A stretch of DNA of 64,000 nt, from positions 2,356,001 to 2,420,000 of the forward strand of contig OZ287069.1 in assembly GCA_965645245.1 (NCBI GenBank). The letters are read 5' to 3'. Made by a program: the position numbers and the translations under genes. Below are positions 42,587-63,533 of the stretch, in pieces. The stretch comes from Massalongia carnosa. Its lineage: Eukaryota. Numbering within the stretch: the stretch's first letter is position 1; every line of letters begins with the position of its first letter. The notes below the pieces were generated by a model, which was given only the letters and a program-made list of their open reading frames with translations, had not been told where the DNA came from and did no database searches.

Positions 42587-43348
42587 ACTGCAAAATCAGT
42601 CACGAGATGTTTCCGCTCGTGACCTTAATCGGCCGACGGTCACGTAACTGGATGTTTCAATGTGGGGATACTGTATACAATATATACAAACCCTTCCGTG
42701 ATAAAGGAAGTACATAGTAAAAACCTCATACCACTACGTTATGTTAGTTAAGCGCTTCACACCGTCAACTGACGGAATACGTGCCTAGGCGAATGACAAC
42801 ACACAGTGGACAGGAACTCCTCAAAGTAAGAAATCCCTTCGCCAAACCCCCAACCCCCTCCTCAAAATAAAAAACCGACTTCATATCCAATCTCCCGAAC
42901 CCTCCCAGTCCAGTCTTCCTCCATCCCTTCCTCCCCTCCTTCCCCTATCTCGCTCGAACAAACACCTACCTAGAAGTTATCCCACGCAAGAGAGCAAATT
43001 CGTGAAAGGAAGGGGAAGAGAGAGGAGGGAGAAATGATGGACCGGAAACTCGCACAGAGCGGTGGGGGGGGGGGGGGGGGGAAACAGGAAAGAAGATGTG
43101 CATGTATGTACATATCAGACAAATGGAAAAGGGGAAGGAAGGAGACAAAACTCTTTTTCTTTTCTACATGTTTATGTACTTGCGGGACACGAAGGGCTGG
43201 GAACCAACAAAAACGACACGTTGAGATTATCCGGTGATTAGGGGTGGCGGGCGAGAAGGGGATTTCCGATGGCAGGGTTCTGCTAGGATGATAGGCGAGT
43301 AGACAGAAAAGGAATTGCTAACGGAAACCTGACTGCGTCCAGCCCGGG

Positions 43349-44869
43349 CTACGTTTCTAGCTCTGCCTCTTCCATCTCCGATGACGGATCCAGGGTGACT
43401 TCTTCACCATTTTCAAACGCTGGGACTTCAAGACCATTAGGATCGTTTAGGCAAAGTTGTGGTAGACCAGGAGCAATGCCCGGGGGAGTCTGGCCCCCTT
43501 CCATCATCCCTCGTGCCAGACCTACGCTTGTGCCCTCTAGTGACCCAACCCCCTCACCCTCGTAAATAACTCCTCCTCCAGCTGCCTCCTTCAAGATCTG
43601 CTCATCCGCGACCTTCCTCTCTCCGCTAATAGGATCCCATTCAAACCCAATCCTTAACCAGCGCCACCTTAGATACGCCCTCAACTCCTTATCCAAGGGC
43701 AGCACTCTCGTCCATTCCTTCGCCAATTCCAACTTCCTAATAGTAGAATCGCGCATCAATTCCCCTCTGTCCGGTAGACCTGTCGGAAGCCCGCGCAGTT
43801 CGTCGCGGCAGAAGATGCGCCAGCTATCGATGGCGTAGGCGCCAATGCCAGCCAAATGGCCGACTTCCCATGCGACGCGACCATCATCGTCGCCGATGGG
43901 GCCTTCGTTGATATCAATGTCCTTGCCGTCGTCTTTGGCAGGGTAATGTAGCCGTCGATAGCGCTTTCCTTTCACAGGCGGGGTTTCCAACCACGTCTTG
44001 GCGAGCCCGACGCATCTCAGCGCACGCTGATTCTGCAGTCCCAGCTGCTGGAACACTGAAACGATCTCATCGTGCTTAGCTGCTGCTAGAGCGGTAGGGG
44101 TAGGGTAGCGGGCAATGAGATTGTAGAAAACAGGCATAGCAACGGAGCCGCGAGTTTTGTTAAGGAAGATGACAGCGATGAGAAGGAGGAAGGGTGCGTG
44201 GCTAAGAGACTCCTGGACAAGGCCAAAGGAGATGGCGTCCAGGGGTGGAAAGGGGATGGATGAGATTTTTGCCCCTTTCACCCTTTTAGAAGGCGATTTG
44301 ATGAAGTAAGGGGATATTGTAAGTTTTCTTAGAGCTTTCGGCTTATGAGCTAGGCTGATGGGTTTAGAACGTTCTTTTTGCTGCAGCGATAGGTCTGGTT
44401 CAGTTTTGGGTTCTATGGGAAGGGTGGTGAATGGAAAAATAGGACTTGAAAGGCAGCTGGACAGAGAACTTATTGAGCAGCTTCGTACTCTACGGATATA
44501 TGCGCTGGAATCAAAGAGAGCATGGCCGCTTGATGGAGATGGCCCCTGTTTTTTAACCTTCTCAGTCACTGTCTCAGTCGGATCGAAAGGGAATTCGGGG
44601 TTTGACAAGGCGCTAGACAGGGGACTGCTGTCATCGCTATAAAAACCTGTATCGGAAGTTTTGGCTCTTTCCGGCGTCCAAAAAACATCATGGCGAGTTT
44701 CCCTTTGTTTCGGAGTTTTGGGAGGATCAACTATCGCTTCTCGATAGCCTTTTTTAACTTGTGGTTTATTCTCTCGCGACATCTCCTCATCAGCAGCGGT
44801 CACGCTTACTAAATCATTGGAGACTGAAAATCCAAACGTTGGGCAAAGTTTTCTGCAGAGTTTTGGGAT
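43349..44869 (-). CDS. MBD4-like HhH-GPD DNA glycosylase ORF (G:T/G:U mismatch family); frame open from 44869, in the -1 frame of the upstream ORF
   Basis: FGLVQESLSHAPFLLLIAVIFLNKTRG, RYPTP, LGLQNQRA, HhH motif HLAGIGAYAIDSWRIFC and catalytic-Asp region VLPLDKELRAYLRW, all typical of MBD4-type glycosylases. Confidence 0.9.
   Translation of the reverse strand: MPKLCRKLCPTFGFSVSNDLVSVTAADEEMSRENKPQVKKGYREAIVDPPKTPKQRETRHDVFWTPERAKTSDTGFYSDDSSPLSSALSNPEFPFDPTETVTEKVKKQGPSPSSGHALFDSSAYIRRVRSCSISSLSSCLSSPIFPFTTLPIEPKTEPDLSLQQKERSKPISLAHKPKALRKLTISPYFIKSPSKRVKGAKISSIPFPPLDAISFGLVQESLSHAPFLLLIAVIFLNKTRGSVAMPVFYNLIARYPTPTALAAAKHDEIVSVFQQLGLQNQRALRCVGLAKTWLETPPVKGKRYRRLHYPAKDDGKDIDINEGPIGDDDGRVAWEVGHLAGIGAYAIDSWRIFCRDELRGLPTGLPDRGELMRDSTIRKLELAKEWTRVLPLDKELRAYLRWRWLRIGFEWDPISGERKVADEQILKEAAGGGVIYEGEGVGSLEGTSVGLARGMMEGGQTPPGIAPGLPQLCLNDPNGLEVPAFENGEEVTLDPSSEMEEAELET
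44773..44833 (-). promoter_or_regulatory. candidate -1 programmed ribosomal frameshift signal (G_GAU_UUU plus downstream stem-loop/pseudoknot)
   Basis: The heptamer at 44833-44827 is in the correct X_XXY_YYZ phase. Downstream pairings are UCUCC/GGAGA, UUAGU/GCUGA and CGUGAC/GUCGCG. Confidence 0.55.
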
Positions 44870-46692
44870 TCAGATGCAGTACGATTCTCCTTGTTCTGAA
44901 TGGAGATCTCAGGGAGGCCTGAGTGAGTTGCCTTTGCTTTCTTCGTCTTTCCTTTTCTATTATTGCCTCCTTCCACTTCTGTACCTTTCTTCGGGTTTCT
45001 CTTCTCTCGCTTTCCACGTCCTGTTATGGCCGAACCATTTTGGCTTGCGGGAAGTTGCTCCTGGTTGGAATCTTTACTACAGCCTAATTTGACGATGTTT
45101 TCGCCCCATACAGACCTGTCTTTGGCCAAGTTCCGATCCGGAGTTGCTCCACCAACACCGACGACTTCGTTGCTAAGTGACACTTTCAACGTTCCTTTCT
45201 TCCATTCCAATTCCGAATACAAATTACGATGTTCTTGGCTCGTCCATACCACGCCACTTGGTTTTTGGGAGGTAGGGTCCTGGCCCTGGTTCCCATATAT
45301 ATGAAGACCTTCGTGGCTCCTTACTTTAGGGCCTGATATCTTTGGAATTTCAGATGCTGGTAGAATCAAGCTAGTGATAGAGTGGTCTTCTTTTGGATTC
45401 ACTTCCTGCTCCTTCGGCTTTTGAGATGTTTTCGTGCCCTTCAAAGTTTTAACTTGCTTTCGATTCCTTCTTTTTACCCTACTATTGAATTCCGGTGATA
45501 TTTTTTTCACGTCAGCACTAATCTTCTCTTCCTCACGCTCACAAGGTTGAGCGGCTAATGCCGGGCTTTGTGATGATACTAATGGCTCGTCAAGTAAAGC
45601 CGAATCTATGTTCAACAGCTCATCTACCACATCTAGGCTGCGTATCTGATGCGTAGGTATCTTAGCGATTACAATGCCTGCAAAAGCGACTTTGTCATTA
45701 CTATTCAACCCATTCGAGGTTAAAGTTGGTTTATTTGTACTCTGGACTAAGCCCGGCGGCTTTACATAGGGCACGACTTGCTCATCCCGGTATCCCTGGG
45801 CATATTGAACGCCTTTTTGCTGTCTCTTCTTCGCTGGATAGTCCTTGATCTTATCATTTGCCATGTCTGCCTCAAACGACTTCCGTTTCTTTCTTTTGAT
45901 CACTTCAATAGAGGCACCTTTCGCCACTGGAGGTACAGATATATGAGTTTTCTCTCCTGGATTCTTTTGCTTTTTATTGATTGTATTCTGCTGTTCCTGA
46001 GATCTGTCGTTCCTTCCTGCAGTGGATAGTTGGCACAAGTTCCTCGATTTATTTGACGTCGTTGATTGTGTCAAATCTTTGGCTTCAGCAGATTGCACCA
46101 CTCCATTGTTTGGAGACGTGGATTTTGAAGGACAGGAGAGTCTTTTCAAGACAGTCGATGAATCATCGATCTCGTCGGCCCAGGCAGAATGATCACTATC
46201 ATAGAACTCTTCTCCGCAAAAGCTCCTTGCCTTGACCAATTCTTCCTCTACTTTACTTTTCGACAGACCTAGAGACCGACCGAAATCATAAATATCTCGT
46301 TCAAACTTCCTTCGATGTGAGGTTGTAAAACGGGCAAGAGACAGTTTGGTGAAGAACTCATGTTTTCGAACGTAATGGTTCAGCTGTTTGAGCGTAGAAG
46401 GCTCGGTGTTCTCTGAATAAGGTCTAAGGCGCGTAGTAATATAAAATCCCGATGGAGACGGTTTACGAAGTGCAGGTTTCTTCGTGGGTGAATTGACATC
46501 CTCTAGCTTCTGGCCCTCGGGGGCAGTTTGAGACCAGCGATATAGATCCTCCTCCTTAGTGTCATCAACAACGTAGTCTTCAGACTGCGAAGGAGAATCT
46601 TCAAACTCAGACTCTTTGGGTAGAGCTTGAGATGACGGAGGCAGCCAATCGCTATCGCCCGGAGACCTGCTCGGGATCAAGGTTTGCGCCAT
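44809..46692 (-). CDS. 627-aa Lys/Ser-rich protein; probable N-terminal part of the glycosylase gene
   Basis: Long ORF with a structured N-terminal block (FTTSHRRKFERDIYDFGRSLGLSK...CGEEFYDSD) and NLS-like tracts. It ends LDFQSPMI* and overlaps the glycosylase frame by about 60 nt. Confidence 0.85.
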   Translation of the reverse strand: MAQTLIPSRSPGDSDWLPPSSQALPKESEFEDSPSQSEDYVVDDTKEEDLYRWSQTAPEGQKLEDVNSPTKKPALRKPSPSGFYITTRLRPYSENTEPSTLKQLNHYVRKHEFFTKLSLARFTTSHRRKFERDIYDFGRSLGLSKSKVEEELVKARSFCGEEFYDSDHSAWADEIDDSSTVLKRLSCPSKSTSPNNGVVQSAEAKDLTQSTTSNKSRNLCQLSTAGRNDRSQEQQNTINKKQKNPGEKTHISVPPVAKGASIEVIKRKKRKSFEADMANDKIKDYPAKKRQQKGVQYAQGYRDEQVVPYVKPPGLVQSTNKPTLTSNGLNSNDKVAFAGIVIAKIPTHQIRSLDVVDELLNIDSALLDEPLVSSQSPALAAQPCEREEEKISADVKKISPEFNSRVKRRNRKQVKTLKGTKTSQKPKEQEVNPKEDHSITSLILPASEIPKISGPKVRSHEGLHIYGNQGQDPTSQKPSGVVWTSQEHRNLYSELEWKKGTLKVSLSNEVVGVGGATPDRNLAKDRSVWGENIVKLGCSKDSNQEQLPASQNGSAITGRGKREKRNPKKGTEVEGGNNRKGKTKKAKATHSGLPEISIQNKENRTASESQNSAENFAQRLDFQSPMI

Positions 46693-47335
46693 TCTACCTG
46701 GCGTTTAAAGTCAGGCCGTCCCAGCTGCCTTGCTACTCCCTACTCGTAACGTGAGTAAAAGGAACTGGAGTAGTAGCTAGAAAGCCTCCCATAAGCTCGG
46801 AGTTCCAGCTAGTTTGAGTTCTTTTCGCTCTTGCGATGTCTTCCAAAAGTGAAAATCCACCAAACCATACATGGAGATGGTCAACCTTCATCAAAACTCG
46901 CCATTTTCAAGGAGTTTACAGATTTCCCTCGATTTTTCGGAGACAGCTGCACACTTCGGCTCGGCTAAATGGGTGGTTTTACCGTCAACGGAAAAACATT
47001 TTAGTAACCCTAACCACTTGTTGGTGCCTTTGCCCTTTGTTAGCCAGACTCTCGTCGTGATTGAGACCTAAGGCCTTCCATCAAGATACTTGAGCATTCA
47101 GTTCACCGTTTTCGCATAACCTTGTCAAGTTGGTCCGTGCTCATTCGCCAAGAGTGAGAAGCTACTTTAGCGCTTCCGCTAGATCGTTTTGGCCCCTCAC
47201 TATGCCTTGGTAGGACTTAGGAGTACCTAGTCAGTGCTAGTTCTAAGTAGATACGGTTTGTTGAGCAATTGGAACTTACTTAATGGCGATGAGCTTCTTG
47301 CCTCCCCCCTATTGTACCTCCTTGATAGCTACCAG

Positions 47336-58199: not shown

Positions 58200-61100
58200 T
58201 CAGGGGGAGGAAGAAAGACACTCTACAGCTAGCGAAAACTGTGTCAGTAGATTAGTCCGCATAAGCCAGCGAGCGGAGGCTCGTAAGCCCTTTTCGGTGG
58301 TCAGAAGGCGGCGATAATCCGTCGTTCCGGCGTCTCTGCACATGTTGTCTTCGGCCGTTAACAAACCTGGGGCAGCTGAGTAGCACATGCTTGAGCGTCT
58401 GGCGTGCCCATCCACAGCTACACGCCGGCGAAGCGAACGTGGGAACTCGACGAGAGAAGAGATAATCCGCCAAGCCAATACGCTCAGTACGCATTTGAAT
58501 GATGAGGCTGCTTTCGGATTTGCTGAAGTTCTTATGTAATCCCAGTCTCTTTATCGAAAGACCCTCAGTAAGCGCAGCGCAGGGATGACGCTGATGAGCT
58601 GCCTGATACGCGCTCCAGGTCTGTTTCCACTGATTGTTGAAGATCTTGGCTAGCCCTCTGTCCGTCGGAGTGTCCTCTATCATGTCAGCAGGCCGGACTC
58701 GAGCAATCTGCCTCGTATACCAGTCACGCTTACGCTGAGCCGGCGTAGTGTTGAGGGCGCGCCGTCGTCTACCGCGCGAGGCAGTCAGCTTGCGCTTGAT
58801 CTTCTCACAGAAAGCGGAGATGCGTTGATCGTGTTCATATTCTTTAAGACGTCGTCGTGCCTTCGCCTGCAAGTGAGCTAGATGCAGCTGAATTGGAGAA
58901 ACGTGAGTTTCGGCTTCGATGATGATTTGCGGAGTAGCGCGAAATCCTCCGCTTATCACTCGCAGACACTCTCGCTGTATGTCACCGAGCTGTTTGTCGA
59001 TCCTCTGCGTGCCGTCGGGACGGCCATATGGCGAATGCCAGACGGTAGAGCCGAAGGTAATCGCCGATCGCACGACGGCGCTATAAACGTGTCTCGCCTT
59101 CGAAAAGCACGCTCCCCACGTAGAAGCCGTAAGCCTGGATAATGCCAAGGTCTGTGTAGCCATTTTGCCCTGTATGAACTTTAGATGAGGGCCCCATTTA
59201 AGCTTGGAGTCGATCTGAATTCCAAGCACTCGCACCGACGGCGAAGGCGTCTTGTCCACGCCTCCTATGCACACGGCAGCCGTCATGTCGAAGCGACGAT
59301 CATTTCTGGCGAAATGTAGGAGCTCGTATTTAGCAGGCGCGAAGTGCGCTCCATGACGTCTAGCCCACAGCTCGCACATCTCGTGAGCACGTTCTAAAGC
59401 TCGACAGTTACTCGCAGTCGAGGTGCCGTATGCCAGTATATTGATGTCGTCAATAAACCCCAACGCGGTGACTTTGAGTCGAGATCGCTCTAGCTCCTCC
59501 AAAATATCTGCGTTGTAAAAAATGTAGAGAATGGGCGACACTGGCGACCCCTGCGGTATACCGGCATGAACAAGGCGCATCGAAGACGTCTGACCGCCGA
59601 TTGTCAGTGTGGACCTTCTTTGCTGTAAAAAGCTGCCGACCCATGCTACGATCCATTCAGGAATTTTTCTCTTGCGCAGATTGTGCAGCATTCTCTCCGC
59701 CGAGACGTGATCAAAGGCACCGGCCAAATCAATGCTCAAAAGTGTGGCCACTTTGTCTGACCCCATGTTCCACACCGTGTGTATCTGTTCGGTGAGGAGT
59801 TCAAGCGCCGTTTCACAGGATCTTTGTCGTCGTCCTCCCATCTGAGACTCAGGAAGCAGATTGTGGGTCTCCGCAATAGCGGCGATGCGTTTAGCTATGA
59901 TCGATTCCAAGACCTTCCCAAGCGTATTCAGAAGCGCGATAGGTCTATAGGCCTTAGCGAGAGTGTAGTTCGGCTTGTTCGGCTTCTTGATTGCAATAGT
60001 GTGAGCCTCGCGAAAGCAGAGTGGGTGATACCCCTGCTCTGCGCAGGCGCGAAACAGAAGGACCAACGTGGGCAGTATCGACTTGATCAGAAGCTTGAGT
60101 ATTCTATTCGGTATTCCGTCGGGGCCCGGAGCAGAGTCCGGCTTACAACGCTTGATTGCTGCCTCTATCTCCTCGCCTGTGATAAGAGACTCCGTTTCTG
60201 CGACAGCGGGAGGGTAGCGATACGTCGTCGTGTCGCTGAGGTCTGCCGCGGTTGCATTGGGGAAGAACATATCAGAGAGAAGAGACGTCTTTTCGTCGAA
60301 TGTGGACGCAGTGACTGCTGTGCCGTCCGCAAGCGTGTGCGTCAGATCGGGCACCTTGGGAATGTCTCGCGGTAAGTGACTGCGCGTACGAGCCCATCAA
60401 GCAAGACGCCATATGCCTTCGGACGCAGACGTCATCTCTACTAAGGTTCTTCTGAAGTCGAGCTTCTTCTCCTTGGTGATGATCTTCTCCTTTTCATCCG
60501 CCGATTTGAGATACCTGCGCCACGTTGCCTCTGTCTTCCACCTCGTCCACTCGCGTCTTCGACGTCGAGTCTCCGTCACAGCGACAGCGCAACGCTCGTT
60601 CCAGAAGGGTTTGGAGACGGGGCAGGGAGCCGTCCAGGGAATGGTCTCATTTATCGCGTCAATAATGGCGGACTGTAGTCGATTCGCTAAGTCGTCTATG
60701 GCTTGCGGGGTACGCGGCCACTCCGTGACTACAGGTAGACGAAGACTTTTCGCCAGATTTTCTTCGTCGGCTCGCTTCCATGCTCTCTTGCGACGTTCCA
60801 CGCTCAGCTCCACCTCTAGCGTCAGCTTGGTAGAGACGGGTATGTGATCGGACGATTGGTTCATCTCCGGACGGGTGTGACAGTGCAGCAGACTGTGTCT
60901 CAGGGAGTCGGTCATGAACACTAGGTCTATCGTGCTCGTGGATCTGCGTGCCTCCCAAGTGACAGAGCCACTAGGTAGAGTGAGCTGCATAGACGCCGCA
61001 CGAACGACGTCGAGAAGCTGGTCGGCCGCTTGATGTTGTGTAGGCCTGGAGGGGCCACTCCACAGAGGGTGATGCAGATTAAAGTCTCCCAGCAAGATGT

Positions 61101-61536
61101 GTTCCTCTTCATCCCGCTCATGAATCTTTCGTCTCACCGCCTCCACGCTTTCGAGTAGCTGGCGAGAAGAATGCGAGTCGGGTGATTGACTGTAGACGTT
61201 ATGTATATTGATGTATCGTGGCTCATTACTCGCAGATATTCTTAGTCTCATTGTACACACGTCCGGCGTGAGGAAGTCCACAGCCCAAGAATTGACATCC
61301 AATCTTTTATTAATATAGAAACACGCACGTACATTCTCATTCGACATAAACGCAAGATGAAAGCCGGAATTGAATGGATTGTGCGACGTGCAAATGCTGG
61401 GGTTGCGCCATGGTTCCTGAATGGCTAAGACGTCATACTCCTCTATTCTCTTGTCCGCCAGTAGAGGGGTCATGACCCCGTTCTTGCTCTTTCTGATGTT
61501 ATACTGTAATATTGAAAGAGATGTTTGTCCCGCCAT
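58200..61536 (-). pseudogene. LINE ORF2: APE endonuclease, reverse transcriptase and C-terminal CCHC; one nonsense and one frameshift
   Basis: LQYNI, AIQEPW, LLGDFNLHHPLW, TIDL and SDH (APE). YRPIALLNTLGK, GIPQGSPVSP and FIDD (RT). An in-frame TGA at 60397-60399 is followed by WAR, and there is a frameshift near 58350. Confidence 0.93.
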
Positions 61537-63210
61537 TACTGGGTATTTCGGGAGACTTTGCCGCTGATTCTGTGAAGCGGCGGGCGGCCGCGCTTCGGCT
61601 TCGGCTGTGGCTGCGTCTGCGAATGCGCCTTCGGCGCCGGAGGAGGCATGGGGTAACGAAGGAGTGCAAGGGCGCTGTCAGACCTATGAGAAGACGAGGC
61701 CGGCTGTGAGTCAGGTACAACCGACATGCTGGCTCTGCGCCTAGTAGGAGATGGCGAGGAGCTTTCTCCAGGTCCCTGCGAGTGTGCCCTCTTGCCGTGT
61801 GTAGAGGGGAGAGCCGGAAAGCTGTTGGTGACTGTATTAATGTCGATGCTCATAATCGTGGAGCCGTCCTGAGTGAACTCGTTCGGCTCCTCGGCCTCGG
61901 GGGTTGGCGAGCGGCTTCGCTCACGCACTGCCTGATGACGTGTTGGCGCAGGTGTATGAGACGTCGTGTCGCCGGCGTTATTGCGTCGTTCTACTGTCTG
62001 ACTTTGTCGAGGAAGGACAACCGGCTCCGTCTCGACATGCCACGTTGGTCGGTTCTTCCAGATGCCATTCAGACGCTCCTTCTCCTCTTTTCGGACGGGG
62101 CAGAGGTGAGACCACGCCGGATGATTCCCGCCGCACACGGCGCACTTGCGTCGATCCGCAGGCGCTTTGCATGCTTGCGAGCGATGTCCTTGAGCGCAGC
62201 CTGCGCATCGAAGGGCGTTCTTGCATGCGGTGCCCGTATGTCCGTACTTCTGGCAGTGAAAGCACTGTTTTAGACGACAGTTCTTATCGAAGTACTCACA
62301 TATTCTATGCGAGTAATCCTGCAGAAGACCCTCTTTAATCAGTCTGTTTGCCGTCTCTGCGGTGGCTACTTCAACTATTAGCGAGGAGTGAATCTTGGCT
62401 TCTGAAACTGCCCTTTTGGTCCATGCAATGCGGCAGATCTGCAGTCCCGGATGAAGCTGCTCATTCTGTTTCTCTAGACTCTTGATGGTAGCTTGTGCGT
62501 TAACTGTGTCGACGCTGTCTACGCGCACCCCATGCGCTAACACAGCGAATGTGCGTCGCACTACATACGCTGAGTCCGCAAGCCCTTTATGTAGCTGTTG
62601 ATCCATCTCCATTCTAGCCTTAGCTTCCATCTTGCACGCCAGCAGCTCCAAGTCGCCGCTTGGGAGACGTCGCACCGCCAGTACATCGCCGGTCTTCTCC
62701 TCGATAGTCTTGATTCTGTCCATAAGTGCCTTGTTCGACAAGGCTTTGATTCCGACTTTCTCTGCGTCGTTCCTGAACTTGATCAGAACGGACTTTCTTC
62801 TCTTTATCTCCTCCAGCTGTCGTTGCTGCTCCATTACGGAGTTGCGCGTCGCCGTCGTGTTGCTGTCGTTTCTGCTACTTCCCGCGGACGCTACCGCGGC
62901 GTAGCTCTTGACTGCTGCCGTCGTCTTGGTCGTGTTCGCTTCTATGCGCGTTAATTGCTGTTGAATCAGCTGCATATCATTGCGTAGCTCGCTCTCCGGA
63001 AGCGCGAGAAAGTGAATCAACTCCTTTGCTTCTTGTAGCAGTGTCAAGATCTCTGATCCCTTAATTATCTCTCTGGATTTGTCGCGTAGCTGTTTTTCAA
63101 TGTCAGCTACATATTGCGCGTACTGCTCGGCTCGTAAGGTTTGCGCTGCTTTTCTTCTCTTGTAGCGCCCGCGCAGCGATGTCGCCACGCCGCCTACTCG
63201 GCGTCGACAT
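61536..63210 (-). CDS. LINE ORF1 (gag-like, three zinc knuckles); likely ATG 63210 with a 1-nt frameshift near 63150
   Basis: CFHCQKYGH..C, CAGCAQGH..C and CAVCGGNH..C, plus HGV and SSLIVE motifs. Its stop overlaps the ORF2 start (TAATG). Confidence 0.88.
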
Positions 63211-63533
63211 AACGTCGGTACGCGTTACAAGGGAAACGTGTTGAGAGAATAGATAGATGTGAGAGTCAAATCAATAATAGTAGCCTAGATTGTGCTTGTC
63301 GATTGTTATCGCGATGATGATCCGTTTACGATTAATGACATCTTATGAATGAAGAGTAGAAAGCTTGTGAATGAAGAACTTGATTTTTATATCTTAGAGT
63401 TCTATAATACAATGTGTGAGGGATAAAGTAGGAGGATGATGTGTTGACTTCTCCTTTTGAGAAAAACAAGCAGCATTCCTTTTATTTATCATCATGCACC
63501 TCATTGTCCTAGCAATATTTGCTCCAAGCCCAT

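Follow-up and report, generated by a model that had tools for sequence, protein, structure and literature searches.

Two overlapping reading frames at one locus

A 64,000-nucleotide (nt) stretch of the genome of the lichen fungus Massalongia carnosa (GenBank assembly GCA_965645245.1, contig OZ287069.1, positions 2,356,001 to 2,420,000), hereafter the window, contains two long open reading frames (ORFs) that overlap in different frames and that appear to encode the N-terminal part and the MBD4-like DNA glycosylase part of one protein. All features of this locus lie on the minus strand, and positions are counted from the first nucleotide of the window. The upstream frame, ORF1 (44809..46692, taken as the 0 frame), runs from an ATG at 46692 to a TAG at 44811-44809, and its 627 codons specify an N-terminal domain followed by a long K/S-rich linker that ends in ...AQRLDFQSPMI*; its product is identical to the database protein P0263. 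The downstream frame, ORF2 (43349..44869), is -1 relative to ORF1, opens at 44869 right after a TGA (44872-44870) and ends at the stop at 43349, giving 506 codons from stop to stop, of which residues 15-506 are the putative C-terminal part of a fusion protein. Both frames are open between 44812 and 44869, and the stop codon of ORF1 (44809..44811) overlaps, in the -1 frame, the Leu-Val codons of a conserved motif described below. The first AUG of the -1 frame (44780..44782, opening the sequence MSREN) lies 26 nt past the ORF1 stop, and translation could start there independently. The layout described in an earlier note on this DNA, namely the two ORFs, their -1 relation, their overlap, the ...LDFQSPMI* ending and this internal ATG, was borne out on the window sequence in every part.

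Contigs of three DNA runs matched the window without difference or indel across a 3.8-kb stretch, with word depths of 148-853; these runs represent two samples of one study and may include the source of the window itself. Because all three give the identical sequence, an assembly indel at the frame break, which had been raised as a possible trivial cause of the two frames, is unlikely. No splice joints were seen in the contigs of four runs over 43200-47000, all of these contigs being DNA-like in their behaviour. Run X4, labelled as a different organism and belonging to a different study, contained the identical sequence in short contigs of low depth that covered 24 of the 30 bins of 43200-47000 and left 44470-44723 uncovered, and the same or a near-identical fungus seems to be present in that sample. 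Runs X1 and X3 yielded one contig each, of depth 2-3, matching only 43788-43843 (56 nt of the glycosylase domain) with 7 differences before diverging, which is probably a homologous gene from another organism in those samples.

The proposal that ORF2 encodes an MBD4-like DNA glycosylase held up well. A phmmer search against the PDB placed the domain at 43658..44230 and returned 15 distinct MBD4 sequences, with E-values of 2e-15 to 1e-14, in three aligned stretches that include the helix-hairpin-helix (HhH) segment. The aspartate that follows the HhH segment is present: its codon, GAT at 43828-43826, lies in AIDSWRIF and aligns to that of GNDSYRIF in MBD4, which we take to be the catalytic residue of that enzyme (HLAGIGAYAIDSWRIFC aligned to ELHGIGKYGNDSYRIFC). 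The Pfam family HhH-GPD (PF00730), carried by many of the relatives, scored 21.7 bits on ORF2, below the cutoff of 26.2. A Pfam search detected no methyl-CpG-binding domain in either ORF, and neither ORF1 nor the N-terminal part of ORF2 matched any Pfam family. MBD4 and the window protein are alike in the C-terminal domain, in its HhH segment as well as in the Asp of G-x-D-S-[YW]-R-I-F, whereas the latter is without a methyl-CpG-binding domain, carries an insertion of about 40 amino acids (aa) and has a different, fungus-specific N-terminal domain. By these comparisons the protein is MBD4-like in its catalytic domain only and is no full-length MBD4 orthologue. The insertion relative to the solved MBD4 domains, ETPPVKGKRYRRLHYPAKDDGKDIDINEGPIGDDDGRVAWEVG (43829-43957, ORF2 residues ~295-337), is highly conserved among relatives.

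The relatives of ORF2 are lichen-forming fungi. In a glycosylase tree of 45 rows, for which a midpoint root only was used, the window groups with Lobaria and Pseudocyphellaria of the Peltigerales (100/100), and across this order the identity of the glycosylase reaches 78%, with the catalytic Asp retained. In ORF1, a conserved N-terminal domain of about 90 residues lies at 46138..46407 (residues ~96-185; ...NHYVRKHEFF...RRKFERDIYDF...CGEEFYDSD...), and residues 96-185 were matched by a profile built from relatives. This domain scored at best 0.84 in an atlas search, which is the chance level. By BLASTP, ORF1 matched the relatives P0137 (E = 1e-22) and P0161 (E = 5e-10), in which both halves lie in one continuous ORF. 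The searches for ORF1 homologues were insensitive, returning 3 and 2 matches with the window's own protein counted in each.

A conserved motif at the frame break

Relatives of 900-1500 aa, with the N-terminal domain first and the glycosylase last, are frequent among the 150 of 1322 matches listed from an exhaustive search. Their alignment shows, between the two domains, a conservation island of 17 residues, GFxx[ST][ND]D[SL]x[SG][MVL]T[AT]x[DV]E[EG], the flanks of which do not align among relatives. In the window this motif (44777..44833; GF-SV-SNDLVSVTAADEE-MS) straddles the frame break, [DG]F being read from the 0 frame and the rest from the -1 frame, which across the overlap reads FGFSVSNDLVSVTAADEEMS, that is, the conserved motif. 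Eleven of its residues (SNDLVSVTAAD..) are encoded upstream of the first -1-frame AUG (44782) and are conserved as amino acids though they lie past the shift site considered below and past the ORF1 stop. Because these 11 residues are conserved between flanks that do not align, they argue that translation already enters the -1 frame before it reaches any AUG. Judged by homology, ORF1 encodes one half of a single ancestral protein and ORF2 the other.

The end of the 0 frame carries a signature of its own, [DG]Fx[STN]P[MV]I, which was found in 8 taxa of 5 orders (Peltigerales, Teloschistales, Pertusariales, Baeomycetales and Candelariales) and 2 classes. Its P-M-I corresponds to TCC-AAT-GAT-T, the codons of S-N-D, read one base later, and is in other words the S[ND]D of the motif in the wrong frame. 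In all signature cases the 0-frame [DG]F is followed by 5 nt and then by the -1-frame S[ND]D, at a place where continuous relatives have two codons. The window, read from DNA, ends in LDFQSPMI*, and comparable endings were seen in Logan ORFs of the relative P0266 (PDFQSPVI*), of the Lobaria-like P0265 (SDFSTPMIQLARPLLMRRCL*) and of two strains of Seirophora lacunosa (GDFQNPMIQKA*), the last with a 447-aa glycosylase ORF on the same contigs. The NCBI model of Pseudocyphellaria aurata ends in EGFHSPMI* and the glycosylase is the next gene, while in Circinaria calcarea (PDFQSPMI..), Lambiella insularis (TGFSSPMI..) and Candelina mexicana (GGFHSPMI..) the signature lies within an NCBI model. On this comparison, the position of the break inside the motif recurs across lichen fungi. 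The glycosylase side agrees with this: among the best 120 matches of near-full length, 89 begin inside the motif and none reaches GF. The raw Seirophora ORFs (P0270/P0271) also contain, shortly before the break and some 45-90 residues from their C-termini, two C2H2-type zinc-finger motifs; since ORF1 of the window has nothing like this pair, the content of the linker differs between orders.

In three relatives the N-terminal domain, the motif and the glycosylase lie in one frame, as seen in ORF calls on contigs of 15-24 kb: P0137 (1513 aa, GFPISNDS), P0161 (800 aa, DFPHPNDS) and P0150 (950 aa, GFQNPNDS). All three fall inside a 36-row clade (100/99) that contains every Lecanoromycetes row of the 45-row tree. 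P0137 is sister to the break-carrying Lambiella (98/88), P0161 belongs to an unresolved group, and P0150 has a long branch (1.37) and an unsure placement. In P0150 and P0161, residues of the 0-frame type (QNP and PHP, respectively) are followed by NDS, which is the product expected from a single-base insertion into the split form, and we read both as secondary 1-nt re-fusions of that form. If so, the fused protein would be acceptable in the split species and is probably normal there. The GFL[RK]T[DS]DL of Eurotiales models is consistent with an unsplit ancestor.

Long 'fused' proteins in NCBI are gene models of metagenome-assembled genomes that switch frames via predicted introns, and such models were excluded as evidence for a continuous frame. 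Their treatment of the junction exposes an annotation problem, given that the lichen-fungus models compared each handle it differently, some as two genes and others as intron-bridged fusions. P. aurata is annotated as two adjacent genes (P0264 and P0010, MMC07_007756/7). Two Seirophora models (P0123/P0267) join the frames at different places, and one of them drops the second C2H2 finger encoded by the raw 0-frame ORF, while the models of Lobaria immixta (P0273), Circinaria (P0107) and Lambiella (P0139) omit part or all of the motif. In Diplocarpon (Leotiomycetes) a distant family member is one 1255-aa protein in one assembly (P0245/P0288) and two adjacent genes of 641 and 425 aa (P0287 and P0290) in another; the motif and the PMI signature are both absent there, so that Diplocarpon has no bearing on this break and is a separate annotation discrepancy.

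The candidate shift site and competing explanations

A change of frame must fall between 44869 and the S-N-D codons at 44821. Within the overlap, GGATTTT at 44833-44827 is the sole heptamer of its kind in phase, phased as G_GAT_TTT in ORF1 and translated as Asp-Phe in the 0 frame but as Gly-Phe in the -1 frame; by itself GGATTTT is common, with 19 matches in the window against 15.1 expected. The phase attributed to this candidate in the earlier note was confirmed and the heptamer is a documented slippery variant, but it is not a strict X_XXY_YYZ heptamer. The -1 ORF overlaps the site and the 0-frame stop follows soon after it, at five codons in the window and at 5-17 codons in relatives. A slip at 44833-44827 would join 622 residues to 492, giving 1114 aa with the junction ...LDF-SVSNDLVSV....

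The same heptamer could be deduced in Seirophora lacunosa by a script that retained only nucleotides compatible with both overlapping protein readings. The raw 0-frame ORF P0271 and the -1-frame part of the NCBI model P0267 proved mutually consistent over 58 codons, and their reconstruction gives ...GGG GAT TTT CAG..., that is, G_GAT_TTT in the phase seen in the window. By the same deduction, the window and the Lobaria-like ORF share an identical stretch of 24 nt further downstream (over TAADEEMS). A degenerate junction pattern gave 6 chance matches among metagenome contigs, none of them related, a junction pattern gave 60 bacterial chance matches among prokaryote genomes, and tblastn of ORF1 and ORF2 against 66 loci gave no match.

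We favour, with a probability of about 0.6, a conserved programmed -1 frameshift at G_GAU_UUU. One gene would encode the N-terminal domain, a disordered linker, the short conserved motif and the MBD4-like glycosylase, with an ancient 1-nt frame break in the motif. The majority of ribosomes would stay in the 0 frame and terminate five codons after the site, yielding the 627-aa product (~70 kDa). Some would move back by one base on G_GAU_UUU (44833-44827), where tRNA-Phe could re-pair perfectly on the run of four U, and would continue in the -1 frame to make the 1114-aa fusion ...RLDF-SVSNDLVSVTAADEE...glycosylase, with a predicted mass of ~123 kDa and the junction peptide LDFSVSNDLVSVTAADEEMSR. 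The sequences themselves establish the two frames, the homology of each half to single proteins, the conservation of the break, its position in the motif and, in two distant taxa, the heptamer; the occurrence of the slip, its rate and any regulatory meaning are inferred. The earlier claim that one mRNA yields products of 627 and ~1114 aa gains considerable strength from comparative evidence, namely the conserved break, its position inside the motif, the heptamer wherever it could be checked and the continuous-ORF relatives. These continuous relatives show that a fused protein occurs naturally. The chances seem evenly balanced that the -1 shift has been kept in this nuclear repair gene from a time before the split of the Lecanoromycetes orders, and perhaps before Candelariomycetes branched off, that it doses the fusion against an excess of the N-terminal protein, and that the halves were re-fused in at least 2-3 lineages. 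As the earlier note proposed, such a shift might ration an enzyme that could counteract C-to-T mutagenesis.

Several observations weigh against a programmed frameshift. Being imperfect, G_GAU would re-pair only poorly in the P site. The conservation anticipated for GGATTTT, the -1 relation and the PMI ending stands for the break, at the protein level, in the 8 taxa; at the nucleotide level the heptamer is confirmed in two taxa only, directly in the DNA of the window and by deduction in Seirophora, and 3 of the 8 signature taxa read G-F and not D-F. These three could carry G_GGU_UUU, which leaves the -1-frame residues unchanged, but this is a conjecture. Three of the 8 signature cases lie inside gene models of uncertain continuation, and the model of Candelina may just run on in that frame. 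A widely kept Met lies a little downstream of the site: among the best 120 glycosylase matches of near-full length, the first residue of the ORF call is the Met of MTAA.. in 80, and 9 more begin 2-7 residues upstream of it. A literature search, with subscription journals outside its scope, returned nothing on frameshifting in this gene or in lichen fungi, and no chromosomal -1 shift from any fungus. Antizyme and YPL034W, the chromosomal cases in fungi that it did return, are +1 (PMC1874602 and PMC12719033, respectively).

The RNA downstream of the site belongs with these points. The pairings on which the earlier note had based an H-type pseudoknot do exist, GUCUCC (44824-19) with GGAGAU (44786-81) and CGUGAC (44804-799) with GUCGCG (44780-75), as weak local helices within 44775..44824. 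Folding of the sequence 3' of the site, however, was no better than that of shuffled sequence, with z = -0.57, -1.04, -0.86 and -1.00 in four folds, in which 53, 27, 41 and 27 of 200 shuffles, respectively, folded at least as well. The usual spacer between a slippery site and its stimulatory structure is 5-9 nt, and RNA folding of the window gave no stimulatory structure at that distance: the outer helix begins 2 nt past the heptamer, and the spacer to the inner helices is 14-22 nt. The 3' arm of the second helix adjoins the first helix, which leaves 0 nt for loop 3 and makes a poor H-type geometry by general rules. With the first helix so close to the heptamer and the second directly against the first, a classical H-type pseudoknot at the site is unlikely, and with folding no better than that of shuffles the pseudoknot is not supported as a stimulator.

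Two kinds of explanation dispense with frameshifting by joining the frames in the RNA or by never joining them at all. A short intron that links the frames in this species is very improbable. The only short candidate in a compatible phase, 44882-44824 (59 nt, GTACTG...TTTTCAG), which would give ...NKEN-LSNDLVSV..., has the length of a typical fungal intron, a good pyrimidine-CAG acceptor and a near-consensus CCAAC 15 nt upstream of that acceptor, and introns probably account for abutting same-strand ORFs in other parts of the window; yet the candidate's donor is without the conserved G at +5, it has no CTRAY branch site, and its removal would delete the conserved GF. Moreover, the equivalent span in the Lobaria-like ORF and in P. 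aurata is only ~20-30 nt, too short for an intron, the 0-frame element NKENR / NKGSR lying 6 and 2 codons, respectively, from [DG]F; this element sits in low-complexity sequence, and the span argument is suggestive, not strict. The gene models that bridge the frames with predicted introns contradict each other, down to the loss of a zinc finger in one of them. A scan of phase-compatible GT/GC..AG pairs of 35-1500 nt gave 78 pairs, among which the 39 GT pairs listed were inspected and the GC pairs counted only: none of the 39 had a CTRAY branch site 8-60 nt from its acceptor, and every one deletes conserved residues. Between the opening of the -1 frame at 44869 and GF there is a single AG (44854-53), which was rejected as an acceptor, its donors lying at least 263 nt upstream, being non-consensus and deleting sequence that aligns with relatives. 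The GTAAGC at 44809, which overlaps the stop and had been flagged as a possible donor, encodes V-S of the motif, and the sequence beyond it (IVDPPKTP, SSPLSSALSNPEFP) aligns with relatives; because GTAAGC and the following bases encode conserved residues, an intron from 44809 to 44637, which would span the motif and IVDPPKTP, was rejected, and this caveat is settled against splicing. On the sequence evidence, splicing does not explain the two frames, and no credible intron links them.

The main rival, which we consider unlikely, is gene fission, itself a common event, in which an old 1-nt deletion would have produced two independently expressed genes and no fusion would be made. The N-terminal protein would then end in ...SPMI*, the promoter of the glycosylase would lie inside the 3' part of ORF1, and a separate glycosylase of ~53 kDa would start at a nearby AUG, at 44782 in the window and at the Met of MTAA.. 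in most relatives. The Met of MTAADEG at which most of the best ORF calls start could be a genuine start codon, several Teloschistaceae have glycosylase-only genes in NCBI that start at MTA.., and both the annotation of P. aurata as adjacent genes and the failure of RNA folding to detect a stimulating structure fit this view. However, ORF calls have to begin at a Met and their counts partly reflect the caller, and the position of this Met is V, L or K in the window, P0137, P0161 and Eurotiales, which weakens the start-codon point and does not remove it. The S[ND]DSxS residues upstream of that Met, which lie outside ORF1 in the window, are conserved as amino acids, and a zero-length spacer or an overlap is kept across orders, with no room for a promoter and a 5' untranslated region outside coding sequence. 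Genes split by a frameshift likewise appear as two abutting ORFs that are halves of a protein single in relatives, but here the junction is spacer-free across orders, falls at a slip-prone heptamer inside a conserved motif, and was re-fused at this very spot in two or three lineages at the least. The likelihood of a dead or dying gene, or of a faulty assembly, either of which would leave the frameshift without biological meaning, is close to negligible. Frame breaks of one base in T runs are a familiar artefact of sequencing or mutation, but the identity of the three runs at depths of 148-853 speaks against an error; both ORFs are open and conserved in many species, with the identity among Peltigerales glycosylases and the retained Asp speaking against a dead gene, and the same break in other orders argues against either. 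The remaining probability falls to other recoding or initiation routes.

Elsewhere in the window, three same-strand ORFs of 714, 426 and 562 codons (58252-63224, minus strand) abut or overlap and have the appearance of exons of one large multi-exon gene.

Known recoding systems and the meaning of the break

The proposed site has counterparts in viruses, dianthoviruses among them, which use G_GAU_UUU for -1 frameshifting. Pea enation mosaic virus 2 (PEMV2) shifts frame at G_GAU_UUU (PMC5009743), and the heptamer has been described as typical of -1 slippage for Fusarium oxysporum virus 1 and F. culmorum virus 1, two mycoviruses in which its use is predicted (PMC11050907, PMC7290986); these viruses have in common with the window the heptamer, its phase, an overlapping -1 ORF, a nearby 0-frame stop, and a short and an extended product. 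In contrast to the viral systems, the site considered here lies in a chromosomal cellular gene that encodes no viral polymerase, no stimulatory hairpin or pseudoknot is supported, and the stop is 15 nt from the site, compared with 3 nt. Conserved chromosomal -1 frameshifting is found in mammals in PEG10 and PNMA/Ma3, which make an ORF1 product and an ORF1-ORF2 fusion, and which are derived from retroelements and have kept the gag-pol signal of the element. The programmed -1 shift proposed here would resemble theirs in being conserved and chromosomal and in yielding an ORF1 product and a fusion; unlike them, it concerns a DNA-repair gene with continuous-ORF relatives, and the signal would have arisen or been co-opted in an ordinary gene.

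Within the fungi, the genes OAZ1, EST3, ABP140 and YPL034W likewise have a long-conserved frame break in a nuclear gene that is read through by recoding (PMC1874602, PMC12719033). These are +1 shifts at hungry-codon or stop-codon sites, whereas the shift in the window would be -1 at a tandem-slippage heptamer. The frameshift favoured here would be a known mechanism in an unusual place, the nuclear DNA-repair gene of a lichen fungus.

To our knowledge, nearly all well-supported cases of -1 frameshifting in cellular eukaryotic genes concern genes derived from retroelements, and the known chromosomal cases in fungi are +1. Frameshifting by -1 has so far been known in fungi only from viruses, and in this locus the full enzyme is probably made by a -1 slip. 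If this is true, the locus would be the first example of a conserved -1 frameshift in a fungal gene of other than mobile-element origin, and apparently one that works without a classical downstream structure. It would also show, across a whole fungal class and in an ordinary repair gene, how a frameshift mutation becomes a fixed decoding signal, the natural fused 'revertants' serving as controls.

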